Origin: a virus
Taxonomy: Duplodnaviria; Caudoviricetes
IMG/VR virus record: IMGVR_UViG_3300044701_002545
Location: 1 to 60,200 of that record
Length of the DNA: 60,200 bases
Direction: 5' to 3' (one strand)
Of the stretch, positions 2,294 to 15,763 are shown piece after piece. Within the stretch, counting starts at the first letter, position 1. The number at the start of each line of letters is the position of its first letter. Under the pieces are notes generated by a model, which searched no databases, was not told the DNA's origin, and saw nothing but the letters and a program-made list of their open reading frames with translations. The position numbers and the translations under genes were made by a program.

Positions 2294-2324
2294 ACTGGGC
2301 CCTTTAAAGTGTACCAGTAGTGTA
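2294..2324 (+). repeat. 28-bp cassette-boundary element, copy 1
   Basis: ACTGGGCCCTTTAAAGTGTACCAGTAGT|GTA; abuts TGA at 2291-93. Confidence 0.95.
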
Positions 2325-2337
2325 AGCACTCAATCAA

Positions 2338-2748
2338 ATGGCAACTCGCGCTCGCATCGGTCTTGAACTTCCTGATGGTTCTATTCTCTCTGCATACCAC
2401 CATTGGGATGGTTATGAGTCTTGGTTGGGTCGCATTCTGAACACTCACTACAACACTAAAGAGAAAGCTGCTGAACTGATTGACGGTGGCGATATGAGCT
2501 CTGCTTGGACTAATGCTGGTTTCAAGAATGAAACTGTAGAGCAAGGTCCGCTGTATTATTCTCAGCGTGGCGAAGATTGCCCTCCTCGTCTTGATGCTGA
2601 TCTGTGTGAGTATCTTCTGCCCAACAACAGCGAAGAGTATGCCTATGTCTTCCGCAATGGTGAGTGGGTGTGCTATAATATGAATCAGTTTGACGATTCC
2701 AAACTTCCCGAAATCGTTGAAATCCCTTCTGGTGCTCTTGCTGTCTGA
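2338..2748 (+). CDS. Phage hypothetical protein (MATRARIG...YHHWDGY)
   Basis: 136-aa ORF directly after element copy 1. Confidence 0.8.
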   Translation: MATRARIGLELPDGSILSAYHHWDGYESWLGRILNTHYNTKEKAAELIDGGDMSSAWTNAGFKNETVEQGPLYYSQRGEDCPPRLDADLCEYLLPNNSEEYAYVFRNGEWVCYNMNQFDDSKLPEIVEIPSGALAV

Positions 2749-2751
2749 TCT

Positions 2752-2943
2752 ATGAAAACTTCTACTTCTGTTGGTATTATTTTTGCTGCTATTGTTCTTG
2801 TAACTGTCAGCATATTCTTTGAAGCAGCATTGCTTGGACTGATTCTATCTTGGTTTAATGTTTATTTGACTTTCTGGCAGAATCTTGCTATTGTGGTTCT
2901 TGCCAATATGATTTTCAAAAACACTGGGAGCTATTCTAAATGA
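2752..2943 (+). CDS. Small membrane protein
   Basis: Two hydrophobic segments in 63 aa. Confidence 0.65.
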   Translation: MKTSTSVGIIFAAIVLVTVSIFFEAALLGLILSWFNVYLTFWQNLAIVVLANMIFKNTGSYSK

Positions 2944-3104
2944 ATCGCAATCGTAAATATGTGATTGCTGGACTGATTGGTTTTGCTGCTATTGTTGGTT
3001 GGAATATCTTTCTAATCCAACGTGATGATAGAATGTTTGATGCCTACTATCGTCAACAAGCGATAGAAAATCTCAAGAAACCTCCCAGTGCTGAGATTCG
3101 GTGA
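2940..3104 (+). CDS. Small single-pass membrane protein, 54 aa
   Basis: MNRNRKYVIAGLIGFAAIVGWNIFLI...; ATGA overlap with the previous gene. Confidence 0.6.
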   Translation: MNRNRKYVIAGLIGFAAIVGWNIFLIQRDDRMFDAYYRQQAIENLKKPPSAEIR

Positions 3105-3199
3105 TTTACTTTCTTATTATTTCTGCAGCATTTGGATGGTTCTTTTTTGTATTATTCTCCAAACATTTTGATTACCTAGACGATAGAAAAAACAAATGA
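3101..3199 (+). CDS. Putative hydrophobic micropeptide, 32 aa
   Basis: GTG start; both ends overlap neighbours by 4 nt (GTGA, ATGA). Confidence 0.45.
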   Translation: MIYFLIISAAFGWFFFVLFSKHFDYLDDRKNK

Positions 3200-3333
3200 T
3201 TCCAAAACGTATCCGAGAACTGATTATGAACGCTGAACGTGAGAAGATTGCCCGTGAGTTTTGGGAGGAAATTGAACGTCTTGCTGCTGAAAAGGAAGTG
3301 ACTGTTGACTATTATCTTGCGGAGTTTTACTGA
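3196..3333 (+). CDS. Small hypothetical protein, 45 aa (...EVTVDYYLAEFY)
   Basis: Hand-read, translationally coupled ORF. Confidence 0.6.
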   Translation: MIPKRIRELIMNAEREKIAREFWEEIERLAAEKEVTVDYYLAEFY

Positions 3334-3452
3334 TGACTTTTATTCTTGGTGTAGGCCTTGGAATCCTAGCAACAATGGGATTTGCACTTCTTTCGATGGC
3401 ATCTAATGGTGATGATGCAGATGATATTGACAACAACACTGATTTTCGTTAA
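3333..3452 (+). CDS. Putative membrane micropeptide, 39 aa
   Basis: MTFILGVGLGILATMGFALLSMA plus an acidic tail; TGATG coupling. Confidence 0.45.
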   Translation: MTFILGVGLGILATMGFALLSMASNGDDADDIDNNTDFR

Positions 3453-3455
3453 ACT
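3427..3455 (+). promoter_or_regulatory. sigma70-like promoter
   Basis: TTGACA-N17-TAAACT, followed by AGGAG upstream of the ORF at 3479. Confidence 0.6.
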
Positions 3456-3478
3456 AAAGGAGTAATTTACAAAATACA

Positions 3479-3721
3479 ATGGCACAAAAGTTTCTCTACA
3501 TTGTTGACCACTACATTCCTTTTCCTTCTAGTGAGTATGGTGGACTTTGGAATGTCATTGCAGAAGATGACAATGAATGTTTCGATTTGATTTCTGCTGA
3601 AGATGAAGGTAATTTCTATGAGCAGCACTATACTGCTCTTCGTGAAAACATTCTAAATGCAAGGACTTATGCTCTTGCTGAAGATGTAGAATCCTCTATT
3701 GTTGAATCTTTTACCACCTGA
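3479..3721 (+). CDS. Phage hypothetical protein
   Basis: 80-aa acidic ORF (YIVDHYIPFPSSEYGGLW). Confidence 0.75.
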   Translation: MAQKFLYIVDHYIPFPSSEYGGLWNVIAEDDNECFDLISAEDEGNFYEQHYTALRENILNARTYALAEDVESSIVESFTT

Positions 3722-3882
3722 TGATTGACACTTCTCTAAATCTCCTTGAGTTTAATCTCAAGGAACAGTATCAAGATCGTATCAACTATCTTCAGCAAAA
3801 GATTACGGAGCAACAACATGAAATCTTGCGACTCCAAGAACAAATCAAATATATGTCAAAAGACAGATTTTACGATTGCTGA
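3721..3882 (+). CDS. Small coiled-coil protein, 53 aa
   Basis: Hand-read ORF coupled by TGATG. Confidence 0.55.
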   Translation: MIDTSLNLLEFNLKEQYQDRINYLQQKITEQQHEILRLQEQIKYMSKDRFYDC

Positions 3883-3980
3883 TAAATAATGATGCTTGTT
3901 TGTGGTTATTCAAGCAAAGAGATTTGGGGCAGAAATGCCCCTTTTCTTGTATAAATAAGTATAACCACAAACAAAGCAGT
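3882..3980 (+). promoter_or_regulatory. Structured leader of homing endonuclease: two late promoters, a terminator-like hairpin and a long inverted repeat
   Basis: ATAAATA 3882-88; arm TGCTTGTTTGTGGTTAT 3893-3909; GGGGCA-GAAA-TGCCCC-TTTT 3926-45; TATAAATA 3950-57; complementary arm ATAACCACAAACAAAGCA 3961-78. Confidence 0.75.
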
Positions 3981-4592
3981 ATGAATAACAAGTATTATAC
4001 TTACGCATATTTGCGTGAAGATGGAACACCTTATTACATAGGAAAGGGTAAAGGATATAGGGCTTATTATAAAAATAGAAGGAAGCAAATACAACCACCA
4101 AAAGATAGAAGAAGAATCATCTTTCTCAAACAAAATTTAACTGAAGAAGAAGCATTTAGACACGAAATCTATATGATTTCTGTATTTGGCAGAAAAGATT
4201 TAGGAACTGGTATTCTTCGTAATAGAACTGGTGGTGGAGAAGGAACAGCAAATATGATACTAAGTGAGGAACATAAGAAGTCCTTACTTGCGGGTAGATT
4301 AAATTATTCTTTTACTGACGAAGTGAAAGAAAAAATTAGAAATACTTTAAAAGAAAAAAATATCAAACCACCATCAAGAAAAGGTATAAACCATAACGAA
4401 CAATATTTTAATAAAAGATGTAAAAAGTTGTATGAAATTACAAGTCCAGACGGTAAAAAATATACTACAAATAGATTAAAAAACTTTTGTAAAATGAATA
4501 ATTTGAGTTGTGGTTGTATGTGTGAAGTTGCTAATGGAAAATATAAACAACATAAAGGGTGGACAGTTAAAATACTGGAACAAAAACCTTGA
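3981..4592 (+). CDS. Free-standing GIY-YIG-like (Seg-type) homing endonuclease with NUMOD-like C-terminal modules
   Basis: YYTYAYLREDGTPYYIGKG...R...E...N-TGGGEG; basic C-terminus; AT-rich; own late promoter. Start placed at ATG 3981. Confidence 0.85.
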   Translation: MNNKYYTYAYLREDGTPYYIGKGKGYRAYYKNRRKQIQPPKDRRRIIFLKQNLTEEEAFRHEIYMISVFGRKDLGTGILRNRTGGGEGTANMILSEEHKKSLLAGRLNYSFTDEVKEKIRNTLKEKNIKPPSRKGINHNEQYFNKRCKKLYEITSPDGKKYTTNRLKNFCKMNNLSCGCMCEVANGKYKQHKGWTVKILEQKP

Positions 4593-4617
4593 CTTCCTTT
4601 CGGTTTTTTGTTATTAT
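4582..4617 (+). promoter_or_regulatory. sigma70-like promoter at the 3' end of the endonuclease gene (-35 in hairpin loop)
   Basis: TTGACT(4589-94)-N17-TATTAT(4612-17) with TGn extension; arms AAAAACC/GGTTTTT. Confidence 0.6.
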
Positions 4618-4638
4618 ATCTTTGTTGAATAAAAAAAC

Positions 4639-4926
4639 TTGGAACTTCCATCTTCTTTCTTTCATTCTCCTCCAGACGGATATTATTATGAAGCAACTGA
4701 GTTCAAACGAAATGTTGTCAGTATTTGGTTATGTAATACTCGTAAGTTTGACTATAACAATGGTGCTCCTACAAGAACTATTCATTCCTTTTACAACACC
4801 AAAACCAGAGAATACTTCTCCCCAGTCAACAGTAAGACCATCGGTGCTTGTGTAAATATCAAGGAAACGCGGAACTATACCGCGATGCCAATTAAACAAT
4901 CTCCACTAGATGCGTTTTTTGTATGA
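4639..4926 (+). CDS. Phage hypothetical protein (TTG start)
   Basis: 95-aa ORF, ATGA-coupled to the next gene. Confidence 0.65.
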   Translation: MELPSSFFHSPPDGYYYEATEFKRNVVSIWLCNTRKFDYNNGAPTRTIHSFYNTKTREYFSPVNSKTIGACVNIKETRNYTAMPIKQSPLDAFFV

Positions 4927-5162
4927 GTTACGAACCACAAGTCAATCACTATGTTAAGTGGACAAAAGGTGTTGAGGGTTGGATTTACTTCAAGGATCAA
5001 GAATATGTTACCATCGAGTACACTGTTCGTCCTAAAGATGAAATAAACCTTGAATGCTGTCCTATTCACAAAAATGAAAGATTGCTTGTGATTTGCTATA
5101 ATAAACAGTGGAAAGAGTTGGAGTTTGTAAAGTCGAGAGAGTCTGTATATTCTGAAGTTTAA
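4923..5162 (+). CDS. Hypothetical protein
   Basis: 79-aa ORF in operon. Confidence 0.7.
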   Translation: MSYEPQVNHYVKWTKGVEGWIYFKDQEYVTIEYTVRPKDEINLECCPIHKNERLLVICYNKQWKELEFVKSRESVYSEV

Positions 5163-5166
5163 GTAA

Positions 5167-5751
5167 ATGATTCACGCATTATTTCCATCTATAGTGATAG
5201 ATGATGTTTGTCAAGATTTCTCTGCAGTTCAACCAGAATTGATTGACTGGATCTATTGGTATAGGGGAAAAAATCCAGATAGCATACATATATCAAATCG
5301 CGGGGGATGGCAATCTCCCGCATATTTTCATAATGAGGAATCTTTTCAGCCATTTCTGAAATATATTTTGGACAACTTCCAAAATATGACTGCTTGCTAC
5401 AAAACAAAGATGAAACTCCTCAATATGTGGATTAACATTAACAGAAAGGGAGACTATAATACAGAGCACGATCATCCTGTATCTGATCTCTCTGCTGTCT
5501 TATGGATAAAGACGCCCAAAGATTGTGGTGGATTAGTGTTTCCTTCTCCAAAATCTTTTGTTCAACATAAAATTATAGATGTTCTTGATGAGGAGATTCG
5601 TAATCAAACAAAGTGTGTTTATTCCACTATGTTTCATCCAGAAGAAGGTAAGACGGTTATATTTCCATCAAATATGAGGCATTCCGTTGAAATGAACAAC
5701 TCTGATGAGGATAGAATATCAATAGCATTTAATATGGAGTTCTGTGATTGA
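5167..5751 (+). CDS. 2OG-Fe(II) oxygenase family protein (TIGR02466-like)
   Basis: SNRGGWQS, WININ..GDYN..HDH, FPS.M.H.V, RISIAFN motifs. Confidence 0.85.
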   Translation: MIHALFPSIVIDDVCQDFSAVQPELIDWIYWYRGKNPDSIHISNRGGWQSPAYFHNEESFQPFLKYILDNFQNMTACYKTKMKLLNMWININRKGDYNTEHDHPVSDLSAVLWIKTPKDCGGLVFPSPKSFVQHKIIDVLDEEIRNQTKCVYSTMFHPEEGKTVIFPSNMRHSVEMNNSDEDRISIAFNMEFCD

Positions 5752-5753
5752 TT

Positions 5754-6017
5754 ATGAAAAGAAAAAGTGCATGGAGATTGCTAGCTAAAGCATTGGGAGA
5801 AAAGGCAAGCAAGGATAATAGAGAGGCAGATATTGTTGCAGGCATTCGTCTTGTAATGTTTATGTCTATTCTTATCACAAATTGTTTCATCGTAGCAAAT
5901 GCAATTCGTCACTGGAATGATGAAACTAAAGTAGAAATAATTCTAGAAACTTCTGGTATGCCAGAATATCACGTTCCACCATCCAATTATTCAAATAGAA
6001 CTATTGAGTTTGAATAA
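5754..6017 (+). CDS. Hypothetical membrane protein
   Basis: WRLLAKALGEKA...DIVAGIR followed by a hydrophobic helix. Confidence 0.7.
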   Translation: MKRKSAWRLLAKALGEKASKDNREADIVAGIRLVMFMSILITNCFIVANAIRHWNDETKVEIILETSGMPEYHVPPSNYSNRTIEFE

Positions 6018-6043
6018 AATAAATATCTAAAAACATCCTGAAT

Positions 6044-6235
6044 ATGAAGACATTTCAACAGTTCATGGAACAAACTCCACACATGGAGCCTAACTTCTAT
6101 AGTCAGCAAATTGCAAAGCGTCAGGCAGCACAAAAAGCATCGCAAATCAAACACGTTCACCAAGAGATTGGTGCAGAAGCAAGGGCACAACAGTCTCAAA
6201 AAAGAGCAGAAATGAAGGCAATCATGAGTCGTTGA
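6044..6235 (+). CDS. Small late protein, possible internal head protein
   Basis: ATAAATA at 6019-25; N-terminus MKTFQQFMEQ resembles the T4 capsid-targeting sequence. Confidence 0.6.
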   Translation: MKTFQQFMEQTPHMEPNFYSQQIAKRQAAQKASQIKHVHQEIGAEARAQQSQKRAEMKAIMSR

Positions 6236-6240
6236 TAAAA

Positions 6241-6271
6241 ATTGGGCCATGTAAAGTGTCCTAATAATGTA
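6241..6271 (+). repeat. 28-bp element, copy 2 (divergent)
   Basis: ATTGGGCCATGTAAAGTGTCCTAATAAT|GTA; 5 nt after the stop at 6235. Confidence 0.85.
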
Positions 6272-6285
6272 ATCACCCATTCACT

Positions 6286-6444
6286 ATGGATTTCTTCGAC
6301 GACATTCAAATTGAAGAGTTGGAAAACTTTGATTTTGTTGGAGATATGAATGAATTTCTTTTTGATGAGGAAGATCGACTGTATCCAACTCTAAACTCAA
6401 AGTTTGATATTAACGAATATCTTAACGGAAACATTGATTACTGA
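6286..6444 (+). CDS. Small highly acidic protein, 52 aa
   Basis: MDFFDDIQIEELENFDFVGDMNEFLFDEED...; 16 D/E versus 2 K/R. Confidence 0.65.
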   Translation: MDFFDDIQIEELENFDFVGDMNEFLFDEEDRLYPTLNSKFDINEYLNGNIDY

Positions 6445-6504
6445 CAGTTTACAGACTGTCCACTAAACTCTCCACACTGACCCTTTAACCTTTATTCTGG
6501 CCAC

Positions 6505-6705
6505 ATGATTGAACAAATCCCCAACGTGCTTCCTCACATCAAAGAACTGAAAGAAGCATGGCATCGTCAAGATTTCGTATTCACTAAGCAACAACAAGAA
6601 GAATACGATCTCTTGCTTGCCACTCGCCGCGAACGTGTCAAACAGTTTTATGCTGAAGGACGTGTGTTCAAAGGTTCTTACAAAGCAAAGGAAGAGGAGT
6701 TCTAA
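6505..6705 (+). CDS. Hypothetical protein
   Basis: 66-aa ORF; TATTCT 6 nt upstream of the ATG suggests a leaderless mRNA. Confidence 0.7.
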   Translation: MIEQIPNVLPHIKELKEAWHRQDFVFTKQQQEEYDLLLATRRERVKQFYAEGRVFKGSYKAKEEEF

Positions 6706-6732
6706 ATACTAAAAAAGTGTTTAGATAGTCCA

Positions 6733-7311
6733 ATGCGTACCTTTTCACAATTCATGTCTCTCTGCGAGAAATCTGATTCTGATGCTGCTAAACAACTTGG
6801 CTGGGGTGGTGGTGCTTCCATCACTCGCCAAGGTGAAGGTGGAAGAATCGGTAAAGAACGCAAGAAAACAGAAGCAGAGAGACGTAGAACTAAGAGAGGA
6901 CCAGGTGGCACAACTGTTCCTGCAAAGGAATACAAACCACGCAAAGATATTGGTCAACAGCGTAGTTCTGACACTAGAACACAAGCACCAACACAAGAGC
7001 GTGGTTCTGCAAGAGAAAGACAACTAGCTGCAGCAAAAGAAGAAAGAAGAAAAGCAGCACTTGCTAGAAGAGCAGCAAAGTCTGGCGGAGAGACTTCAAC
7101 AGCAAAACCTAAATCAAGAGATTTAGAAAAGCAAGCATCTAAACTTCTCACCAAGAAGAAAGCAGAGGCACCAAAGGGCAAACCCATTGAGAGAACAACC
7201 AAGCGCGAATATACCAGAGATGAGAAGAAGAAAATGGTAAGAGCTGGTAAGCGTCTACATGCAGACATCATCAAAGGTAGAGACCTTCCAGCATCGAAGT
7301 ACCAACCCTGA
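6733..7311 (+). CDS. Highly basic late protein, possible internal head/DNA-binding protein
   Basis: CTAAATA at 6702-08; N-terminus MRTFSQFMSLCE; very K/R-rich. Confidence 0.7.
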   Translation: MRTFSQFMSLCEKSDSDAAKQLGWGGGASITRQGEGGRIGKERKKTEAERRRTKRGPGGTTVPAKEYKPRKDIGQQRSSDTRTQAPTQERGSARERQLAAAKEERRKAALARRAAKSGGETSTAKPKSRDLEKQASKLLTKKKAEAPKGKPIERTTKREYTRDEKKKMVRAGKRLHADIIKGRDLPASKYQP

Positions 7312-7316
7312 CATTT

Positions 7317-7347
7317 ACTGGGCCCTGTAAAGTGTCCTAGTAGTATA
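7317..7347 (+). repeat. 28-bp element, copy 3
   Basis: ACTGGGCCCTGTAAAGTGTCCTAGTAGT|ATA; 5 nt after the stop at 7311. Confidence 0.95.
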
Positions 7348-7365
7348 AGGACAACACTCAAAACA

Positions 7366-7521
7366 ATGCTCTGGCAAGATCGCAACGGAACCTGGCACAG
7401 TACAGTTTCTCCCATCGACATTAAAATCGAACAAGCGATGATTGCTGAGAACGCTAACAAAGTCTGGGAAGAAAAAGAGCGTTCTGGTGATTGGCTTTTC
7501 GATGAAATGTTCGGGGGTTGA
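7366..7521 (+). CDS. Small hypothetical protein, 51 aa (MLWQDRNGTWHST...)
   Basis: Hand-read ORF directly after element copy 3. Confidence 0.65.
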   Translation: MLWQDRNGTWHSTVSPIDIKIEQAMIAENANKVWEEKERSGDWLFDEMFGG

Positions 7522-7533
7522 TTAAACCTCACC

Positions 7534-7569
7534 AGCACGCTCAGATTGACCTCTAAGCGTGCTATTTTT
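7534..7569 (+). terminator. Hairpin plus T-run (possible terminator; TTGACC in loop)
   Basis: AGCACGCT...AGCGTGCT followed by ATTTTT. Confidence 0.5.
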
Positions 7570-7597
7570 GTCTTTACCTATCAAACCACTGAGAACA

Positions 7598-7798
7598 ATG
7601 AATTACATCCAAATCCCTGATTATGCCTTTGATGATGTTATTCGCCTTCTTGAGGAAGGTGTTAATGTCGCCAAGAATGTTGATTTTAGTTCTAATCCTG
7701 AAGCTGAGAGAAGTCCATCCTTTGCAAATGGTTACAATCGTGCTACAATGCAAGGTGTGATTGATAAACTGAACTACTACAAACAGAAAGATAACTGA
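7598..7798 (+). CDS. Hypothetical protein
   Basis: MNYIQIPDYAFDDVIRLL...; ATG at 7598 preferred. Confidence 0.65.
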   Translation: MNYIQIPDYAFDDVIRLLEEGVNVAKNVDFSSNPEAERSPSFANGYNRATMQGVIDKLNYYKQKDN

Positions 7799-7799
7799 T

Positions 7800-7830
7800 A
7801 CTGGGCCCTGCAAAGTGTCCTAATACTACA
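7800..7830 (+). repeat. 28-bp element, copy 4
   Basis: ACTGGGCCCTGCAAAGTGTCCTAATACT|ACA(TG); 1 nt after the stop. Confidence 0.92.
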
Positions 7831-9080: not shown

Positions 9081-9193
9081 GTCTCACCCAAGACTCAAGT
9101 GGCCACCTAGCCCGAAACCTTGATTTTTCTGCAATTTCACTGCAACCGACCTAGAACCCATCCACCGCAACAAAAACACCGATTTTTCTCAAA

Positions 9194-9724
9194 ATGAACT
9201 CCAAGAACTGGAAAGCCTACTGTCAAACTACATTCAACTCTCTGGGTGCTAATGTAGTGAATTGGGGCAACCCTGATTTCTTCCGACCCATCACACGATT
9301 GTACTACATTGGTGTGTTTGATTGTGGTCAGGTTAATCACCTTGGTCTGATAAGTGAGCAAGCAAAGGATAATCCTAGCGAGCGAACTCATGATCACTGT
9401 TTGTCTCCACAATTCATCGGCCGAATGATCATGGACAATCCCGACAAATACCTGTCTGATTATGATGTATTTGAGAATCTGTTCTGGTTGTCTTGCTCCA
9501 CGATTACAGTCACAAAGGATGAGAACAAGCGGCTGAGTATGTTGACTGAGAATGACGGAATTGACTATAAAGTTCACGTTCCAACTAACCTTAAGTATCA
9601 ACATCTTGACATCGAACTGTATCAGAAGACTGGTGCAAGATGGGAAAATGCTGTAGAATACGACGATAACATTATTCCAGCGCCTACAGATTTGCTGGAA
9701 TATGAGAAGAGGTTTCTGGTATGA
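9194..9724 (+). CDS. Hypothetical protein, possible His-Me-finger-like nuclease
   Basis: 176 aa; THDHCLSP...TVTKDEN pattern (function speculative). Confidence 0.6.
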   Translation: MNSKNWKAYCQTTFNSLGANVVNWGNPDFFRPITRLYYIGVFDCGQVNHLGLISEQAKDNPSERTHDHCLSPQFIGRMIMDNPDKYLSDYDVFENLFWLSCSTITVTKDENKRLSMLTENDGIDYKVHVPTNLKYQHLDIELYQKTGARWENAVEYDDNIIPAPTDLLEYEKRFLV

Positions 9725-9897
9725 AAGAGGGATTTATTATCGGCAAAGGTAACTATGCAGCCGTGCCCTATGGTAATCAACTGATGGTTATACATAACGG
9801 TCAACAGTTGAAGGTGTGTAGGACTGAAAGCTCTGCACGAAAGTTCATTGATGACCACAAGAAGGGTAAGAGTGTAGCAAAGTTGCCCGTTGATTGA
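9721..9897 (+). CDS. Small hypothetical protein, 58 aa (MKEGFIIGKGNYAAVPYGNQ...)
   Basis: Hand-read ORF with ATGA overlap. Confidence 0.65.
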   Translation: MKEGFIIGKGNYAAVPYGNQLMVIHNGQQLKVCRTESSARKFIDDHKKGKSVAKLPVD

Positions 9898-9898
9898 A

Positions 9899-9929
9899 AC
9901 TGGGCCCTTGAAAGTGTATTAGTAGTGTC
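9899..9929 (+). repeat. 28-bp element, copy 5
   Basis: ACTGGGCCCTTGAAAGTGTATTAGTAGT|GTC; 1 nt after the stop. Confidence 0.95.
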
Positions 9930-9959
9930 AGGAGCACCCTGCTCCACAATCAATACCAA

Positions 9960-10250
9960 ATGCAAGACAAAATCGCACAGGTTAAGACTTTCGTGAATGA
10001 GAATGTTTCCAATGAACTTCTCAAGAATGTCGGTCTCTCTACTGCTATTCTGTTTGTCGTGATTGTTGCTCAACTTCTTATTCATGAGGTTGTTGCAGTT
10101 GTTGATGCAATCCCAGTGTTCAATGGTGTTATGGAACTCGTTGGACTTTTTGCTTTCATTAACTTCACCCGCAACAATCTAATCACTGCAGAACAGCGTA
10201 ACGCACTGGTTGATAAAGTCAAGAGCACTTACAATCAAGTCGTTGAGTGA
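9960..10250 (+). CDS. CAAD-domain / CurT (CURT1)-like membrane protein
   Basis: TM1-VVAVVDAIPVFNGVMELVGL-TM2-F.R.NL...EQR..L..K matches the CAAD/CURT1 pattern (IP....ELVG...R). Confidence 0.75.
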   Translation: MQDKIAQVKTFVNENVSNELLKNVGLSTAILFVVIVAQLLIHEVVAVVDAIPVFNGVMELVGLFAFINFTRNNLITAEQRNALVDKVKSTYNQVVE

Positions 10251-10270
10251 GGGGTTTATCCCCTTTTTTT
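10250..10270 (+). terminator. Rho-independent terminator
   Basis: AGGGG-TTTAT-CCCCT-TTTTTT. Confidence 0.75.
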
Positions 10271-10281
10271 ATGTCTAAGTA

Positions 10282-10312
10282 ACTGGGCCCTTGAAAGTGT
10301 CCCTATAGTATG
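10282..10312 (+). repeat. 28-bp element, copy 6
   Basis: ACTGGGCCCTTGAAAGTGTCCCTATAGT|ATG; follows the terminator. Confidence 0.95.
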
Positions 10313-11233
10313 AGCATCAAGCAAATGACGAAAAATCTACATTTGGAGCATCCTGAAGATGAGATCCTGACTGGCAATCTGTCAGTTCTCGATTGGTTCT
10401 CTGAGGTAGATTCTACTATCAGTGTCAAAATGGATGGAAGCCCTGCTATTGTGTGGGGTACAAATCCGCAGAATGGTAAGTTCTTTGTCTGCACCAAAGC
10501 AGCATTTAACAAGAAGAAAATCCGCCTTTGCTATAATCAAGATGACATCTTCACTCATTTTGGCCATCAACCTGGTGTAGCACAGATTCTCATTTTCTGT
10601 CTTGATTTTCTGCCTCGCACTCAACAAGTGCTGCAAGGTGACTTTATTGGTTTTGGAAGTGGTCTTGATACATTCAAACCGCAACTGATTACTTACAAGT
10701 TTCCTGCTCCAGTTCGTCAGGACATTATCATCGCTCCGCATACAATCTACAGCGGTGCTGATGACATTCGTGAGATGACTGCTGCTCCTTTGATGAACAA
10801 ACTGATCAGCACTAAAAATTGTCTGTTCGTTCAGCCTTCTGTGGAACTGAACCCTTATCGTGAAGATTTGGAGGATGTGTGTAAGTTTGCCAAGCAAATG
10901 AGCACTCTATGTGAGTTTGTGTCTGATCGCAAGGCATCACAAATCAAAAAAGAGATCAATGCCTGCATCCGTGAGCAAAAGGTCGTGGATGAGAATGAAA
11001 TTGCAGAGAAATGTGATTGTGATGTGAATGTCCTACGGCTTTGGAAGTTGGTGAAGTCTATCAAGGATGATTTGTTCCTGTTCATTCACGAAATGGATCA
11101 GATTGAATGTTCTATCAATGGTGAGGATAGTTTCCACGAAGGTTATGTTATCAGCAACAAGTATGGGACACATAAAGTAGTGGACCGTGAAACATTCTCT
11201 TATGCAAACTTTGTGACTCCCAAGAGCTGGTAA
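10310..11233 (+). CDS. Ligase-fold (covalent nucleotidyltransferase-like) protein of unknown substrate
   Basis: HLEHPED, KMDG (motif I KxDG), QGD, EGYV (motif IV), KVVDR (motif V). Start is 10310 or 10325. Confidence 0.7.
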   Translation: MSIKQMTKNLHLEHPEDEILTGNLSVLDWFSEVDSTISVKMDGSPAIVWGTNPQNGKFFVCTKAAFNKKKIRLCYNQDDIFTHFGHQPGVAQILIFCLDFLPRTQQVLQGDFIGFGSGLDTFKPQLITYKFPAPVRQDIIIAPHTIYSGADDIREMTAAPLMNKLISTKNCLFVQPSVELNPYREDLEDVCKFAKQMSTLCEFVSDRKASQIKKEINACIREQKVVDENEIAEKCDCDVNVLRLWKLVKSIKDDLFLFIHEMDQIECSINGEDSFHEGYVISNKYGTHKVVDRETFSYANFVTPKSW

Positions 11234-11263
11234 CTGGGCCCTTTAAAGTGTACCAGTAGTATG
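11233..11263 (+). repeat. 28-bp element, copy 7
   Basis: ACTGGGCCCTTTAAAGTGTACCAGTAGT|ATG; overlaps the last base of TAA. Confidence 0.95.
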
Positions 11264-11341
11264 AGAACCACACATCGCTTCCAAACTTTCAAAGAAGCAC
11301 TCAGCTTTCTGATGAATCAATTTATTCGTTTAGAAGAATGA
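11261..11341 (+). CDS. Putative 26-aa peptide starting at the element ATG
   Basis: MRTTHRFQTFKEALSFLMNQFIRLEE*; ATGA-coupled to 11338. Confidence 0.45.
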   Translation: MRTTHRFQTFKEALSFLMNQFIRLEE

Positions 11342-11571
11342 CTGACAACAACACGGACCACATTGAAAAGTATGTGCAACGAATCTCTGAACTTCGTGAA
11401 AGTTTAATTAACAAATACGAATATGATTACCATGAGGAGGATGATTATGATCCAGAATATGAAAAGAGGCGTATTCATTCGTTGAGTGATGATGAACTAA
11501 TCTACGAGTTCATGGAAGTTTATCAACTTGATGATGAATCTGAAATCGAAAAAAATATTGGTTTTTATTGA
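11338..11571 (+). CDS. Acidic hypothetical protein
   Basis: 77 aa, D/E/Y-rich. Confidence 0.65.
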   Translation: MTDNNTDHIEKYVQRISELRESLINKYEYDYHEEDDYDPEYEKRRIHSLSDDELIYEFMEVYQLDDESEIEKNIGFY

Positions 11572-11574
11572 CAA

Positions 11575-11829
11575 ATGACTTACTCTAACCTCTCAAAGAT
11601 CCGTCCTAAACTGAGAACAACTGGTCGTGTGTCTGGTAACTTCGGACGCAACAAAGTATCAGCAGGTTCATCACTCAATGACATCGGTGGTGATGGTAAC
11701 ATAGGTGCCACACAAGATGATTATTTGAATCGCCTGTATTATGCTTTTGATAGCACTACCGATCCTAAACTTCAACGCTTCATTTATTCCGAAATTCGTA
11801 AGATTCACATTCAGAGAGGTACTTGGTAG
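11575..11829 (+). CDS. Hypothetical protein
   Basis: 84-aa ORF (SNLSKIRPKLRTTGRVSGNFG). Confidence 0.7.
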   Translation: MTYSNLSKIRPKLRTTGRVSGNFGRNKVSAGSSLNDIGGDGNIGATQDDYLNRLYYAFDSTTDPKLQRFIYSEIRKIHIQRGTW

Positions 11830-11831
11830 TG

Positions 11832-12152
11832 ATGCTACATGACATCGAAGTTCGCCCTGGTCCGAATAGTGGTTACTTTCAATACTACACAGAAACTGTA
11901 GAAGCTGCAACATCACAAGATGCAGTTGCTAGAGTACAACGTGCAAACCCTGGATGTAGTGTAAGGTGCTGTCGTTCCTATAACAAATCGAGTGGCAATT
12001 CATCATCATCAGATTCTGGAGATGTTGGTGGTTATTTGATACTTGGTGCAATTCTGTTTGGTATCTGGTTGCTGGTAGAATACTGGTGGATTGTTGTTCC
12101 TGTTGCTGTAATTCTTGGACTTCTTGTATGGTATGGATGGAACAGTGATTGA
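11832..12152 (+). CDS. Membrane-anchored hypothetical protein
   Basis: Soluble N-domain, Ser linker, two C-terminal hydrophobic helices. Confidence 0.7.
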   Translation: MLHDIEVRPGPNSGYFQYYTETVEAATSQDAVARVQRANPGCSVRCCRSYNKSSGNSSSSDSGDVGGYLILGAILFGIWLLVEYWWIVVPVAVILGLLVWYGWNSD

Positions 12153-12153
12153 A

Positions 12154-12184
12154 ACTGGGCCCTTGAAAGTGTACCAGTAGTATG
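12154..12184 (+). repeat. 28-bp element, copy 8
   Basis: ACTGGGCCCTTGAAAGTGTACCAGTAGT|ATG; 1 nt after the stop. Confidence 0.95.
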
Positions 12185-12403
12185 AACAACAACATCGTTT
12201 CCGAAATCTACTCCTACCACACCAACTGGAAGGAAGGTAAAGTCAACCAAATGTGGATTCAGCAAGTGAACGACAAGTTCATTGCTATTGCATACAATCC
12301 CGAAAAGAATGTGTCGATGCCTATGTCCAAACCCCGCACATCTTACCGTGAAACTCTAGAATGGGTTCGCGGTTGGTGTGGAACTTTCTGTCCTCTTTAC
12401 TGA
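12182..12403 (+). CDS. Hypothetical protein
   Basis: 73-aa ORF starting at the element ATG. Confidence 0.7.
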   Translation: MNNNIVSEIYSYHTNWKEGKVNQMWIQQVNDKFIAIAYNPEKNVSMPMSKPRTSYRETLEWVRGWCGTFCPLY

Positions 12404-12413
12404 TTAAAGTATT

Positions 12414-12620
12414 ATGAGCATCACTTTTACTAACGATCAAAAACAGTATCTTATTTCAGAACTTCAATCTAAAATTAAAGAAATTATAGATCAAAAGATT
12501 GAAATTGTAGAGCAATTTGATGATGATGGTGAATGTTATGAAGATGATTTCTATATTGGTAGTTCTTTTGATCTCGAACTTCAACTAAATTGTGCTCTGG
12601 TCGAAACCATTCTAAAGTGA
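12414..12620 (+). CDS. Acidic hypothetical protein
   Basis: 68-aa ORF. Confidence 0.6.
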   Translation: MSITFTNDQKQYLISELQSKIKEIIDQKIEIVEQFDDDGECYEDDFYIGSSFDLELQLNCALVETILK

Positions 12621-12631
12621 GGTATTGAAGT

Positions 12632-12775
12632 ATGAAATACGAAGTCAAATTGTATCAAGGCGGCAAAACTTTCATTGAGGAAGTGTATGCTCCTGACCCC
12701 AAATCTGCAAGAGAAACTGCACTCATTCGCAACCCATCTTGTAAAGTTGTTGGCGTCAATGTCAGCTTCAAATAA
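12632..12775 (+). CDS. Small hypothetical protein, 47 aa (MKYEVKLYQGGKTFIEEVYA...)
   Basis: Hand-read ORF with GAGGT Shine-Dalgarno upstream. Confidence 0.7.
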   Translation: MKYEVKLYQGGKTFIEEVYAPDPKSARETALIRNPSCKVVGVNVSFK

Positions 12776-12779
12776 AGTT

Positions 12780-12810
12780 ACTGGGCCCTTTAAACTGTAT
12801 CAGTAGTATG
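12780..12810 (+). repeat. 28-bp element, copy 9
   Basis: ACTGGGCCCTTTAAACTGTATCAGTAGT|ATG. Confidence 0.93.
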
Positions 12811-12996
12811 ACAAGCAACAATCCCGATAAAATGTTCATTCTCAACGATGCTGCAAAGAATGATCCTGCAGTGCAAATGGCAATTCAATCTTATATGAAA
12901 CGCTTGCAGAAAGAAGAAGAGTATCGCGCACAAGTTCGTGCTGGATTGATTAAACCTCAACCCACAACTGTTTGGAACATTTCTGACCGCGATTGA
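12808..12996 (+). CDS. Hypothetical protein
   Basis: 62-aa ORF starting at the element ATG. Confidence 0.65.
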   Translation: MTSNNPDKMFILNDAAKNDPAVQMAIQSYMKRLQKEEEYRAQVRAGLIKPQPTTVWNISDRD

Positions 12997-13148
12997 TGGC
13001 ACGTTCATTAACATTCAAGAACCCATCAAAAGTGAAAACAATTCTTCTCATTTTTGCTGTTGCGATGATACTCTCGCCAGGAGTTCGTAACATCACATCG
13101 AACACATTGCACACTGTTGCCGACATTATTGCACCCAGCAGTAACTGA
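12996..13148 (+). CDS. Small membrane protein, 50 aa
   Basis: Hand-read; TGATG coupling; ILLIFAVAMILSP hydrophobic core. Confidence 0.6.
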   Translation: MARSLTFKNPSKVKTILLIFAVAMILSPGVRNITSNTLHTVADIIAPSSN

Positions 13149-13149
13149 A

Positions 13150-13180
13150 ACTGGGCCCTTGAAAGTGTACCAATAGTATG
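13150..13180 (+). repeat. 28-bp element, copy 10
   Basis: ACTGGGCCCTTGAAAGTGTACCAATAGT|ATG. Confidence 0.95.
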
Positions 13181-13465
13181 AACATCAACGACCTCTTCGA
13201 AAGCAAGAAACTCTCTGAGCAACTTGCACTGGAAAACTATCAACAACGTAATGGTGTTGTTGATTATCGCTTGCCTGGAGTTTGCAATCACTACTTCCCA
13301 ACCTGGGATCTTCAAGGTAACAAAACCAGAGAAGTTTGCCTGACCTGTAAAGTTAGCAAGACTGTAAAAGGACAGCTGCGTTATACTTTCCAGATCAACG
13401 GTAAGCGTATTGCAGAGAAGCAAATCCCTGCCGAGTTTAATGCTCTCGGAGTCTTCACTCACTGA
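13178..13465 (+). CDS. Hypothetical protein filling a single-gene cassette
   Basis: 95 aa; its only Met is the element ATG; stop is 1 nt before the next copy. Confidence 0.7.
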   Translation: MNINDLFESKKLSEQLALENYQQRNGVVDYRLPGVCNHYFPTWDLQGNKTREVCLTCKVSKTVKGQLRYTFQINGKRIAEKQIPAEFNALGVFTH

Positions 13466-13466
13466 A

Positions 13467-13497
13467 ACTGGGCCCTTTAAAGTGTACCAGTAGTATC
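13467..13497 (+). repeat. 28-bp element, copy 11
   Basis: ACTGGGCCCTTTAAAGTGTACCAGTAGT|ATC. Confidence 0.95.
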
Positions 13498-13516
13498 ACC
13501 ACTGAACTTTCCCACA

Positions 13517-13828
13517 ATGCGTAAAATCGAATCACAAATGAATCAAGCCATCAGCACCGAGACTGATTGGAAAAAGGACAATACTCAAGTTGTTAACATT
13601 GAAGGTGTATCTTTCGTCTATCTGTATAACAACCTGATTGCAATGGTAGGTGATACCTGGCTCGAATTGTTTGATGGGGGATGGAAGACTAATACCACCA
13701 AAGCTAGACTGAACTCAATCCTTCAAGAACATGGATCTGGTGAGCGAGTCTACCAGAAAAACTTTGAGTGGTTCATCTCTACTAAAGATGGCGAAGTTCC
13801 CTTTGGTAATGGTATCAAACTAGATTGA
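13517..13828 (+). CDS. Phage hypothetical protein (MRKIE...DGGWKTNTTKARLN)
   Basis: 103-aa ORF after element copy 11. Confidence 0.8.
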   Translation: MRKIESQMNQAISTETDWKKDNTQVVNIEGVSFVYLYNNLIAMVGDTWLELFDGGWKTNTTKARLNSILQEHGSGERVYQKNFEWFISTKDGEVPFGNGIKLD

Positions 13829-14318
13829 TCTTTTCTAGAATCTTATAACCTTTGTGATGATTTACCTTTGTTAATGTCTTATGAAGATTTGACCTATTCA
13901 AGTCATTTTCTTCACACCATTTAGCAAGGTTCTTTATCACGAAGGTTTTGTTAGTTTCTATGTGTAAAATCTTCCATTCTGCTGCCTTATTTCTACCTAT
14001 GCTGTCTCTTGAAAGTTCACAGTTTTGTTTGTGACTTACCCACTCTAAATTATCTAAATTGTTGTTTTTTGGATTGTTATCTTTGTGATGAACATCTGAT
14101 AGATTGTGTGGATTAGGCAAATAAGTTTCTGCTACTAATCTATGCACAGATTTCTTTCTTTGATTATACAATCCCACTTGTATTCTCACTCTAGCATAAC
14201 CTCTCTCATCTATACTTTCTTTTAGTTTGCGAGGTGATTTGTAGTTCTTTCCTGTACTATAAATGCCACCATCTTTGTCAACTAAAATGTTACTATAGAG
14301 TGGATGTTGTTTCATCAT
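13815..14318 (-). CDS. Free-standing HNH homing endonuclease (NUMOD4/I-HmuI-like)
   Basis: GY.RV...VHRLVAETYLPNP...VHHKDNNPKNNNLDNLEWVSHKQN; upstream TGCTATAATAAATA on the minus strand. Confidence 0.88.
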   Translation of the reverse strand: MMKQHPLYSNILVDKDGGIYSTGKNYKSPRKLKESIDERGYARVRIQVGLYNQRKKSVHRLVAETYLPNPHNLSDVHHKDNNPKNNNLDNLEWVSHKQNCELSRDSIGRNKAAEWKILHIETNKTFVIKNLAKWCEENDLNRSNLHKTLTKVNHHKGYKILEKINLV

Positions 14319-14373
14319 TAAGCACCTAACTTTGTAGTATTTATTATAGCACACTCACATTTGATGAATAACA

Positions 14374-14404
14374 ACTGGGCCCTTGAAAGTGTCCCTATAG
14401 TATG
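14374..14404 (+). repeat. 28-bp element, copy 12
   Basis: ACTGGGCCCTTGAAAGTGTCCCTATAGT|ATG (identical to copy 6). Confidence 0.95.
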
Positions 14405-14581
14405 AGCAACCAACTTTCCCAAATCTGCCTCGACAAAGCACAACAAATCGCAAACGAAATCAACGGTGATTTGTATTATGTTCCCCAGGAAGATATTGAT
14501 CAACTGTTATCTCAACTGACTGAAGACAATGTAGATCAAATTGCTGAAGAACTTGCTGAATTAGCATATCAATTCAACTGA
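14402..14581 (+). CDS. Small acidic protein, 59 aa (MSNQLSQICLDKAQQ...)
   Basis: Hand-read; its only Met is the element ATG. Confidence 0.65.
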   Translation: MSNQLSQICLDKAQQIANEINGDLYYVPQEDIDQLLSQLTEDNVDQIAEELAELAYQFN

Positions 14582-14586
14582 GTTAA

Positions 14587-14760
14587 ATGATGACTGATAC
14601 CGACAAAGTATTTGCTCTAACTGAACTTCTGGGTGATGTAATTCACACTCTTGAAATGAAACAGTATGACATCGAAGATGCTACTCTGTCTTATGAATGT
14701 GTGACTGATGCTGATAAGTTTCACCAAAAGATGATCGACATTCTTCATTCTCAAGACTGA
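14587..14760 (+). CDS. Small acidic protein, 57 aa
   Basis: Hand-read ORF MMTDTDKVFALTELLG... Confidence 0.6.
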   Translation: MMTDTDKVFALTELLGDVIHTLEMKQYDIEDATLSYECVTDADKFHQKMIDILHSQD

Positions 14761-14767
14761 ATCCTAA

Positions 14768-14905
14768 ATGACATTCACAATCCGTTATTTCACTCCTTAT
14801 CAACAACAATGGAGGACACAAAGTTTCTCTACATTAGAGGAAGCAAATCGTATGGTTGAGTTCTATCGCTCTTGTGGATCTCCTGCTGAATTAATCAACA
14901 ACTGA
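14768..14905 (+). CDS. Small hypothetical protein, 45 aa (MTFTIRYFTPYQQQWRTQSF...)
   Basis: Hand-read ORF. Confidence 0.65.
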   Translation: MTFTIRYFTPYQQQWRTQSFSTLEEANRMVEFYRSCGSPAELINN

Positions 14906-14912
14906 ACCTTAA

Positions 14913-15140
14913 ATGATTACTCTTACCACTGTTAATCTGCCGTTCATTATTAACAAGGAAAAGACCAAAGATGAAAGCGATGAAGGTATGTTTGCTCTTT
15001 ACTTTTACAGTCGAAAGATTATACACAACAACAAACTAAGGTATAAGTTTGAACCCCTAAGATTCGATGGTAAGCAAGCAAGATTCAAGACAAGAAAGGA
15101 TGCAAAACGTTATGCACAGTACAGATTAGGCATTGATTGA
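14913..15140 (+). CDS. Basic hypothetical protein
   Basis: 75-aa ORF before the terminator. Confidence 0.6.
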   Translation: MITLTTVNLPFIINKEKTKDESDEGMFALYFYSRKIIHNNKLRYKFEPLRFDGKQARFKTRKDAKRYAQYRLGID

Positions 15141-15151
15141 TTATACTGTAG

Positions 15152-15178
15152 AGACCCCACTCTTAGGGGTCTTTTTTT
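15152..15178 (+). terminator. Rho-independent terminator
   Basis: AGACCCC-ACTCTTA-GGGGTCT-TTTTTT. Confidence 0.8.
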
Positions 15179-15390
15179 ATGCTTCGCTACGCTCTGTCTT
15201 CGACTTTTATGGCAAAATAAGGTAAAAAAACAATAAAAAGGTTTTAAAAAGCCTTTTTTAATTATAGCTGAGCGATTGTTATGTGTGATACTTATTGTTA
15301 TTGAAAGGTGATAATGATAAGAATTCGTATCATTTAAGACCTGATACTTATGTCCTTTAAATCCTTCTGGGGGTCGTTATCTTACGTAGC

Positions 15391-15419
15391 AAGCTATCAC
15401 ACTCCCCCACAAATGTCAA
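15391..15419 (-). promoter_or_regulatory. Leftward sigma70-like promoter pointing into non-coding DNA
   Basis: Minus strand TTGACA-N17-TAGCTT with TGn extension. Confidence 0.55.
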
Positions 15420-15494
15420 GCACCCCCACGTCACAAAATCCCCACAGATCCCCCACATAAATCCACCGACTCCAAATAAATATCCCCAGTCCCA

Positions 15495-15523
15495 TTGACA
15501 TTTACGCCCACAAGTCCTACAAT
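15495..15523 (+). promoter_or_regulatory. sigma70-like promoter
   Basis: TTGACA-N17-TACAAT; AGGAG before ATG 15550. Confidence 0.75.
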
Positions 15524-15549
15524 ACCCATATACACTCAGGAGCGCACTT

Positions 15550-15723
15550 ATGTCAGTAGCATACACCCAGGCACAGAAGCAGCGTTATAGGATCACTCTG
15601 GATCTATCAGTGTTCGGTGACTTCGACCCACATCAGATTGACTGGGAGAAGTTATTCAAGCTAGAACCTGCTGAGAAGTGTGAGGCTTATGTTGAGGACT
15701 TAAGTACACCTGATCGTTGGTGA
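15550..15723 (+). CDS. Small hypothetical protein, 57 aa (MSVAYTQAQKQRYRITLDL...)
   Basis: Hand-read ORF with promoter and Shine-Dalgarno. Confidence 0.7.
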   Translation: MSVAYTQAQKQRYRITLDLSVFGDFDPHQIDWEKLFKLEPAEKCEAYVEDLSTPDRW

Positions 15724-15732
15724 GTAACAGAT

Positions 15733-15763
15733 AGTGGGCCCTGTAAAGTGTCCTAATAGTATG
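15733..15763 (+). repeat. 28-bp element, copy 13
   Basis: AGTGGGCCCTGTAAAGTGTCCTAATAGT|ATG. Confidence 0.92.

Follow-up and report, generated by a model that had tools for sequence, protein, structure and literature searches.

Promoter-early stem-loop (PeSL) cassettes are known from T4-type coliphages and vibriophages (Arbiol et al. 2010, PMC2839356; Comeau et al. 2014, PMC4122927). A comparable arrangement was encountered in a 60,200-nucleotide stretch of DNA, positions 1 to 60,200 of IMG/VR virus record IMGVR_UViG_3300044701_002545 (Duplodnaviria; Caudoviricetes), hereafter the window, which is a fragment of a T4-like cyanomyovirus estimated by one tool at 28% of a genome. Here, a 28-bp element recurs 13 times between the genes of an array located in the small open reading frame (ORF) region upstream of the baseplate genes. 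On balance, this element is probably an autonomous promoter-type signal of about 32 bp, heading accessory-gene transcription units upstream of the baseplate module; its promoter activity, start site, cognate factor and role in recombination we infer from sequence comparison. An earlier note on the same DNA had set the array beside PeSL and integron cassettes, without a match to either. The former comparison proved apt as an analogy, and the latter failed, as neither an integrase nor a conserved hairpin was found.

The PeSL and the present element are both repeated, co-directional and intergenic, fill the space between the stop codon of one gene and the start codon of the next, and cluster in a hyperplastic, small-ORF part of a T4-like myovirus genome, with sequences specific to a phage pair or lineage. 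Among close relatives, indels and replacements have been attributed to homologous recombination inside the PeSL, and copies 5 and 6 of the window parallel the published ORF192 case, with two copies in one genome and one in the other. The PeSL, however, is about 100 bp long and comprises near-consensus sigma-70 -35 and -10 hexamers, an AT-rich upstream part, a GC stem-loop terminator and a Shine-Dalgarno (SD) sequence, whereas the present element measures 28-32 bp, has neither a consensus -35 hexamer nor an SD sequence, and combines a -10-like TAnTRT with an invariant central block. Of the 13 copies in the window, one has a terminator before it, as have 21 of 454 in the family as a whole, the start codon abuts the element in a third of the cases (168/455), and the 5' half switches as a block between genomes. 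The element thus lacks the stem-loop terminator and the SD sequence of the PeSL and seemingly also its consensus sigma-70 promoter, and would share its role as portable header and stretch of homology. The word 'cyanophage' does not occur in Comeau et al. (2014, PMC4122927), and Puxty et al. (2015, PMC4503421) detected no PeSL density in cyanophage S-PM2.

A T4 middle promoter consists of a MotA box near -30, with the Mot-box TGCTT (quoted in Comeau et al. 2014, PMC4122927), and a sigma-70 -10 hexamer. Similarly, the element is two-part, with a phage-specific box at the place of the -35 hexamer and a host-type TAnnnT, but the box sequence is unrelated, the putative RNA start misfits the -10 hexamer, and no factor emerged. 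Cyanomyoviruses lack Alt, Mod, MotA and AsiA, as stated by Clokie et al. (2010, PMC2984593). With integron attC sites, the element shares the one-way array, the repeated boundary and the variable content; here, in contrast, there is no integrase and no conserved imperfect hairpin, the units hold several genes, and the element stands at their 5' end and looks like an expression signal. Promoters of the T7-group single-subunit RNA polymerases are conserved blocks of about 23-30 bp that end at a purine start, in which a phage-specific segment lies upstream of a generic A/T-rich one, and their copies are uniform within a genome. The element resembles them in block length, purine end, phage-specific upstream segment and within-genome uniformity. 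T4-like phages use the host RNA polymerase, and no single-subunit enzyme appears in the annotation of S-SM2 and SynMITS9220M01 over the 18-26 kb inspected in each, nor was one found among the 10 large window ORFs scanned with PHROGs. Short intergenic repeats of the tailed halovirus HF2 have reportedly been shown to be promoters, but this virus is archaeal and the sequence unrelated.

The repeated element and its family

A degenerate 28-mer pattern scanned over the window, with 100 dinucleotide-preserving shuffles as control, gave 13 exact matches, all on the plus strand, and none in the shuffles. These are exactly the positions of the earlier note (2294 to 15733), of which the identity of copies 1, 7 and 11, that of copies 6 and 12, the purine following all 13 copies and the interval sizes (317 to 3947 bp) were also borne out. 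When a position weight matrix (PWM) built from related copies was scored on both strands, the 13 copies reached 38-53 bits and all other sites in the 60.2 kb at most 8 bits. Hence, the window holds no degenerate or decayed copies and the set is closed; the structural module is devoid of copies, as had been noticed. Eleven copies begin -1 to 9 nt past the stop codon of the preceding plus-strand ORF. The two exceptions named before also stood, copy 6 lying 31 nt past a stop codon, after a hairpin and T-run, and copy 12 lying 19 nt past the start of a minus-strand HNH gene. The features of the array are as follows.

2294-2321, plus strand: copy 1, heading a 14-ORF unit (2338-6235); ATG 16 nt past the 28-mer; 52.1 bits
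6241-6268, plus strand: copy 2, ATTGGGCCA variant, heading a 3-ORF unit; ATG 17 nt downstream; 39.8 bits
7317-7344, plus strand: copy 3, heading a 2-ORF unit; ATG 21 nt downstream
7800-7827, plus strand: copy 4, heading the helicase unit (7830-9897)
9899-9926, plus strand: copy 5, heading a one-gene unit (9960-10250 and terminator)
10249-10272, plus strand: intrinsic-terminator-like hairpin with T-run, 11 nt upstream of copy 6
10282-10309, plus strand: copy 6, directly followed by the ATG of the DUF6267 gene; second in-frame ATG 15 nt later
11233-11260, plus strand: copy 7, sharing 1 nt with the upstream stop codon; only a short frame begins at the ATG of position 29, the gene starting 77 nt downstream
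12154-12181, plus strand: copy 8, abutted by the ATG of a 73-aa ORF without a second in-frame ATG close by
12780-12807, plus strand: copy 9, abutted by the ATG of a 62-aa ORF
13150-13177, plus strand: copy 10, abutted by the ATG of a 95-aa ORF
13467-13494, plus strand: copy 11; ATG 22 nt downstream
13815-14354, minus strand: HNH endonuclease gene (HNH_3; PF13392, E 9e-9), inserted between unit 11 and copy 12
14374-14401, plus strand: copy 12, abutted by the ATG of a 59-aa ORF and heading a 7-ORF unit
15733-15760, plus strand: copy 13, AGTGGGCC variant; the frame begun by the ATG of position 29 has 15 codons, and the gene starts 44 nt downstream

The first 19.7 kb hold 60 mapped ORFs, 59 on the plus strand and one, that of the HNH gene, on the minus strand. 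From copy 1 to copy 12, the counts of ORFs per unit are given as 14, 3, 2, 3, 1, 1, 3, 3, 2, 1, 1 (plus the HNH gene) and 7; the thirteenth unit has no downstream limit, as no motif follows copy 13. A single plus-strand gene was thus present in four of the 12 units enclosed by two copies, and the idea that the array is built of single-gene modules does not hold, since most units comprise several genes (1-14 ORFs). From 19.7 kb on, the window encodes T4-type baseplate wedge, head-closure, sheath-stabiliser, large terminase and tail sheath proteins, the large terminase being 83-87% identical to those of the Kyanoviridae isolates S-SCSM1, S-SM2, SynMITS9220M01, Bellamy, P-TIM68 and S-B43.

The 28-bp length proposed before is right for the block itself, but conservation extends to about position 32. 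Among 183 unique related copies, position 29 is a purine in 97%, position 30 a T in 93%, position 31 a purine (G/A) in 94% and position 32 an A in 84%. Positions 25-30 thereby carry the -10-like signature TAnTRT, of which the search pattern itself dictated T25, A26 and T28 but not R29 and T30.

The element is not confined to the window. An exact-pattern scan of IMG/VR returned at least 114 stretches, many of them with 3-10 copies on the same strand, and a second scan, from which the window's own 5' half was excluded, at least 118. In 115 sequences (114 loci and the first 19.7 kb of the window), 499 copies exceeded a PWM threshold of 25 bits; they lay on one strand in 108 sequences, the remaining seven having no copy above the threshold. 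Carriers among the isolates are S-SM2 (12 copies, AAAGCGT variants included), SynMITS9220M01 (10 copies), S-B05, S-B43, RN05-S and RB11-B. The full motif, with at most two mismatches, was not found in S-SRM01, S-SCSM1, Bellamy and P-TIM68, nor its 3' half in Syn9, S-PM2, S-CRM01 and P-SSM4. The element family belongs to one clade of Kyanoviridae. A BLAST search of phage records with the 41-nt motif stretch of the window retrieved nothing relevant, because variable positions break the words, and the SynMITS9220M01 version retrieved isolates. The 10 copies of SynMITS9220M01, together with one stray match, lie within 38.9-50.0 kb of its 190-kb genome, and the 12 copies of S-SM2 within 42.7-58.5 kb of 191 kb, both regions being syntenic with the window array.

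All lineages share the core C-T/C-n-n-AAAG(T/C)GT-N5-TAnT-RTRA. The octamer at positions 1-8 takes the forms ACTGGGCC (window), TTACTCAC, TAGCTCAC, TTAGTAAC and ACTGAAGC, and further ACTGTAGC, ACTGAGGC and ATGGGGGC, as well as GGGGGGTC in S-SM2. The majority hexamer of the own contig was matched by 577 of 630 copies, compared with 59% (maximum 61%) when copies were shuffled among contigs. At the junction before the helicase gene, orthologous to that of copy 4, the octamer reads ACTGGGCC, TAGCTCAC or TTACTCAC according to the genome, with flanking genes of 74-89% identical DNA. Being uniform per genome and different at an orthologous junction, the 5' half therefore changes as a block and in concert. 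Some TTACTCAC-type copies occur inside arrays of another octamer, namely at 3429 in L029, 7305 in L036, 7938 in L046, and 1676 and 1911 in L150 (numbers of related stretches), and AATTAAAG precedes each of them, which suggests units or half-elements imported from another lineage.

Start codons, leaders and terminators

The window lineage (TGGGCC set) comprises 337 unique copies, and in 260 of them the end of the upstream long ORF falls between 3 nt inside the element and 5 nt ahead of it. An ATG occupies positions 29-31 in 164 of these copies and opens an ORF of at least 40 codons in 158 of the 164. Across all lineages, this ATG is present in 175 of 455 copies and is in frame with an ORF of at least 40 amino acids in 168 of them (96%), about one third being expected by chance; GTG is nearly absent at the same place (5/455). 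An out-of-frame ATG at position 29 is thus selected against, as would be expected if it lay at or next to the 5' end of the RNA. The other starts of the 337 window-lineage copies cluster 14-25 nt past the element (mode 18), only about 16 falling at 1-13 nt. An SD-like 4-mer was present in only nine of 237 leaders, of which A and C make up 67%.

A second in-frame ATG follows at codons 5-7 (15-21 nt later) in 83 of the 168 copies with ATG at position 29, which is the same place where the leadered genes start. In the case of DUF6267, the conserved N-terminus M-K/Q-N-T/K-H-L-E-H-P-E-D starts at position 29 or 15 nt later, depending on the genome. In 71 of 454 copies, no second ATG occurs within 11 codons, and the N-terminus MKNTHLEHPED of units without a second ATG aligns with orthologues.

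A strong GC hairpin with a T-run lies 0-26 nt upstream of 21 of the 454 copies, including copy 6 of the window, and in seven of these 21 the ATG at position 29 is the sole start. Directly behind a terminator a new transcript must start, which argues for autonomy of the element. Taken together, phasing, terminators and leaders point to a transcript born within the element and carrying position 29. A 5' end at this position would yield leaders of 14-25 nt; the gap between hexamer and ATG is 20-26 nt at five near-consensus TTGACA-N17/18-TAnnnT sites of the window (1945-1973, 3427-3455, 4589-4617, 15495-15523 and 17219-17248). With such sites, ordinary host-type promoters apparently operate alongside the 28-mer class. 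In addition, the structural genes at 19343, 33928, 38138, 47596, 51034, 56321 and 59190 have ATAAATA or CTAAATA 17-33 nt upstream, at 19316, 33900, 38114, 47568, 51005, 56281 and 59152, respectively. These heptamers match the published late-promoter motif of cyanophages (Clokie et al. 2010, PMC2984593). As the TTGACA-type sites and the late-promoter motifs are distinct from it, the 28-mer represents a third, separate signal class.

Gene gain and loss at the element

Comparison of the window with the 114 related stretches showed broken gene adjacency in 303 of 375 observations at motif junctions (81%) and in 635 of 940 at other junctions (68%), both figures being inflated by tiny ORFs missed by tblastn. 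The mean broken fraction per junction was 0.80 with and 0.71 without the motif (57 junctions with at least five observations; Mann-Whitney p = 0.15). Among 74 sharp events, i.e. de-duplicated indels or replacements between pairs with high-scoring segment pairs of at least 88% identity, both ends lay within 40 bp of a motif in nine, one end in 27 and neither in 38. A rough random-boundary expectation, with about 22% of the gene boundaries carrying a motif, is 5% for both ends and 41% for at least one, against 12% and 49% observed. In this hyperplastic region, content varies throughout, at motif junctions or not.

Clean cases do exist. L046, L109 and L061 lack the unit at 9927-10281 (one gene and a terminator, enclosed by copies 5 and 6), and a single motif separates the same neighbours there. 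Several pairs of relatives hold unrelated DNA exactly between two copies. In L029, a TTACTCAC 5' half is fused to the 3' half and leader of window copy 4, so that the junction falls inside the element. Such cases would fit a crossover in the shared core by general recombination, as proposed for PeSLs; selection for insertions at unit borders would explain them as well. On the earlier question whether rearrangement breakpoints fall inside the element, the counts point both ways, 36 of 74 events touching a motif at one or both ends and 38 touching none, with the p value of 0.15 for the junctions. Among metagenome contigs from four DNA runs, ten joints with inserted letters were listed; judged from their coordinates, seven have at least one side, and mostly both, in a motif copy or only a few bases away from one. 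Of the sequencing runs listed as containing window positions 6200-16100, none is registered as RNA. These joints are not evidence of excised circles, because in short k-mer contigs of mixed relatives any repeat suffices to produce them.

Competing readings and biological meaning

According to the promoter-type reading, the 3' core AAAG(T/C)GT-N5-TAnT-RTRA would be read by machinery common to these phages, i.e. the host RNA polymerase, and the 5' octamer by something phage-specific, perhaps a phage-encoded factor comparable to that of T4 middle promoters; a genome-specific, strongly conserved octamer suggests such a specificity factor. The RNA would start at position 29 or immediately upstream of it. 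For roughly one unit in three, the mRNA would consequently begin at or within a few bases of the AUG and be leaderless, and the other units would receive a 14-25 nt, A/C-rich leader without an SD sequence. Because every unit begins with the same 16-32 bp, general homologous recombination could cross over inside the element, and whole units might be added, removed or replaced without a dedicated recombinase. Of the view that one boundary element both expresses and recombines its modules, the boundary position and the co-directional arrangement stand, and a role in expression is very probable, whereas a dedicated recombination system does not; recombination is most likely a by-product of homology rather than the work of an integron-like system.

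Several observations weigh against the promoter-type reading. First, none of the 13 copies was among the best 60 of 73 sigma-70-type matches (at least 9 of 12 consensus positions), and the octamer is unlike TTGACA. Second, TAnTRT at positions 25-30, taken as a -10 hexamer, would predict a start at about 36-38, downstream of the ATG in a third of the units, so that either the start site or the mode of recognition would have to be unusual. Third, the element is confined to one region of 11-16 kb in two complete genomes, which is odd for a promoter of a general temporal class. Fourth, arrays may be mixed, as L029, L036 and L046 each contain one TTACTCAC copy inside a TGGGCC array; a foreign octamer in a genome of another type weakens the case for a strictly cognate factor. 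Fifth, the statistical link of the element with rearrangement is weak. Finally, no factor came forward. Sigma70_r4, the one Pfam model used, was not found in S-SM2 and SynMITS9220M01, nor in S-SCSM1, Syn9 and Bellamy. Candidates by phyletic match were rejected, a 136-aa protein and DUF6267 being present in motif-bearing and motif-lacking isolates alike, and a 176-aa protein being present in SynMITS9220M01 and not in S-SM2. An alternative -10 hexamer at positions 12-17 (nAAAGT) was also considered and is weakened by the fact that most S-SM2 copies read AAAGCGT.

A stricter form of the promoter-type reading, which the sequences make conceivable and which we rate as rather unlikely, assumes a private initiation system for the accessory-gene region. 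The octamer would be a specificity code, rewritten in concert at every copy as lineages diverge, and would be read by a phage factor or by the host enzyme working in an unusual way; initiation right after the 28-bp element would give leaderless mRNAs.

An explanation at the RNA level is likewise a minority view with a modest chance of being correct. The element would then be an intercistronic signal on long polycistronic RNAs, either a processing site before position 29 or a site of ribosome entry or re-initiation, read in single-stranded form by a phage or host protein, the RNAs coming from a few ordinary promoters. Such a signal would agree with the location exactly between stop and start codon, with the frame preference of the ATG at position 29 (175/455 copies, 96% in frame), with the nearly invariant U30 and purine 29, and with leaders devoid of SD sequences. 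Long transcripts could be supplied by the TTGACA-N17-TAnnnT sites at 1945, 3427, 4589, 15495 and 17219, and read-through is plausible, as only five plus-strand terminator-like sites were located in intergenic gaps or at ORF ends over the first 19.7 kb, out of 10 listed sites of which several fall within ORFs. It is less easily reconciled with the 21 of 454 copies right behind strong terminators, where little RNA would be left to process, and with the bimodal start distance (0 or 14-25 nt), which is unfit for a ribosome-binding element acting at a fixed distance. To our knowledge, a linear 28-nt RNA site recognised by a protein and having a genome-specific half is without precedent.

Neither a conserved RNA structure nor an Rfam family came to light, which also speaks against the RNA-level explanation. 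The quasi-palindrome described in the earlier note is not conserved, as the inverted repeat is confined to the commonest variant of the window lineage. In 89 copies (10 from the window and 79 drawn from 429 unique family copies, stratified by octamer), 54.5% of the cells of the proposed 6-bp helix pair, compared with 49.4% after shuffling and 53.6% when the partner was shifted three columns. The mutual information of positions 2 and 24 was 0.066, i.e. no covariation, and a covariation score of 0.233, above all 500 shuffles (0.163), can be produced by related sequences without structure. Minimum free energy z-scores of four copies (0.0, +1.4, -0.45 and +0.4) were no better than those of shuffles. 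Moreover, with unrelated 5' halves joined to the same 3' half, no helix could be maintained. A hairpin or attC-like structure is ruled out by the pair counts, the mutual information and the folding z-scores. A search of Rfam 15 with window positions 1-20000 (E up to 1) gave two weak, unrelated matches, none of them at a motif copy.

An ordinary host-type promoter is a still more doubtful explanation. The octamer would serve as a poor -35 hexamer, TAnTRT (25-30) as the -10 hexamer and positions 36-38 approximately as the start, the units with ATG at position 29 being served by read-through. The spacing between octamer (1-6 or 2-7) and TAnTRT, 17-18 bp, is appropriate, the octamer of the TTACTCAC lineages is somewhat like a -35 box, and 83 of the 168 copies with ATG at position 29 offer a usable in-frame ATG 15-21 nt later. 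Yet, 71 of 454 units lack an alternative ATG, seven of these being located behind terminators, and such a promoter would not account for an invariant AAAGTGT within its spacer or for the scarcity of starts at 1-13 nt. It is equally unexplained why the octamer is stricter than positions 20-24 within a genome and is nevertheless swapped wholesale between genomes.

Pfam searches supported the statement that the window contains no recombinase. Phage_integrase (PF00589) and Resolvase (PF00239) had no matches in the window, itself a fragment, and none in the complete genomes of S-SM2 and SynMITS9220M01, the controls being positive in 14 of 14 and 12 of 14 reference genomes, respectively. An integron-like or other site-specific recombination site, at which a dedicated recombinase would move cassettes as circles, is therefore very improbable and, for canonical recombinases, largely refuted: the co-directional array in one region, the content varying among relatives, the units cleanly present or absent between copies, and the seven of ten metagenome joints at motif copies would suit it, but these enzymes are missing from the 28%-complete window and both isolates, the inverted repeat is not conserved, most units are multi-gene, 38 of 74 sharp events are off-motif, and adjacencies break nearly as often at non-motif junctions.

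Regarding gene content, the confirmed products of the array are a helicase (7830-9080), already named in the earlier note, DUF6267 (10310-11233), a 2OG-Fe(II) oxygenase (5167-5751) and two homing-endonuclease-type proteins. Besides the HNH gene, the latter include the product of 3981-4592 (plus strand), related to the NUMOD3 protein of S-SRM01 and to PHROG homing/HNH endonuclease families; a terminator-like hairpin at 3926-3941 precedes this gene. Both endonuclease genes (3981-4592 and 13815-14354) are inside the array, at spots of variable content among relatives. Just upstream of the array, a 257-aa ORF (470-1243) has a weak C-terminal match of the AbrB/MazE/SpoVT type (E 4e-4, below the Pfam cut-off) and could be a candidate DNA-binding protein; S-SRM01 possesses a gene annotated likewise. 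A 231-aa ORF (18386-19081) matches PHROG 3704, labelled 'ferredoxin', and the syntenic gene of S-SM2 and SynMITS9220M01 is annotated purM, so that the labels disagree. The baseplate module contains two giant ORFs, 21717-33896 (4059 aa), syntenic with the 'baseplate wedge initiator' of SynMITS9220M01, and 39701-47170 (2489 aa).

The syntenic region of the motif-less isolate Bellamy carries another intergenic repeat. Its parts are, in order, a box reading GTGGCACA or GTGTCACA, a GC-rich hairpin followed by a T-run, the -10-like GTAT(A/T)TTA (GTAT(A/T)TTAAAGAGTCAAAGGAACA), an SD-bearing leader and then the ATG. Its examples are located as follows.

L245 (Bellamy, record 56-76 kb): repeat copies, e.g. 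upstream of locus positions 4524, 7070, 8996, 10476, 13733 and 14746

In layout, this repeat seems to resemble the published PeSL more than the element of the window does. As Bellamy has a repeat of its own, repeated regulatory headers seem general in this region of the cyanomyoviruses.

Full-text literature searches, motif strings included, did not find the element described, supplementary promoter logos being outside their scope; within the searched literature, the element family is unreported so far. For S-SM2, promoters were predicted with BPROM, with logos in a supplementary figure, according to the genome paper (Sullivan et al. 2010). The timing of early and middle genes in T4-like cyanophages is an acknowledged open point, for which the element provides a sharply defined candidate signal of 28-32 bp. 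Its presence in the cultured phages S-SM2, SynMITS9220M01, S-B05 and S-B43, together with natural octamer 'alleles' at orthologous sites, puts octamer exchange and the mapping of start sites within easy experimental reach. Judging from the start-codon phasing, dozens of small phage genes are predicted to be translated from leaderless or SD-less mRNAs, a point of relevance to gene prediction in cyanophage genomes. Furthermore, the concept of regulatory cassettes as portable homology would be extended from coliphages and vibriophages to aquatic cyanophages, with a partial association with rearrangement. If the element is a strong, compact promoter, it may become a part for cyanobacterial genetics. 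If a private initiation system is indeed involved, it would stand in for the MotA/AsiA middle mode that cyanomyoviruses lack, and no earlier example would be known of a cyanophage expressing genes systematically from leaderless mRNAs.

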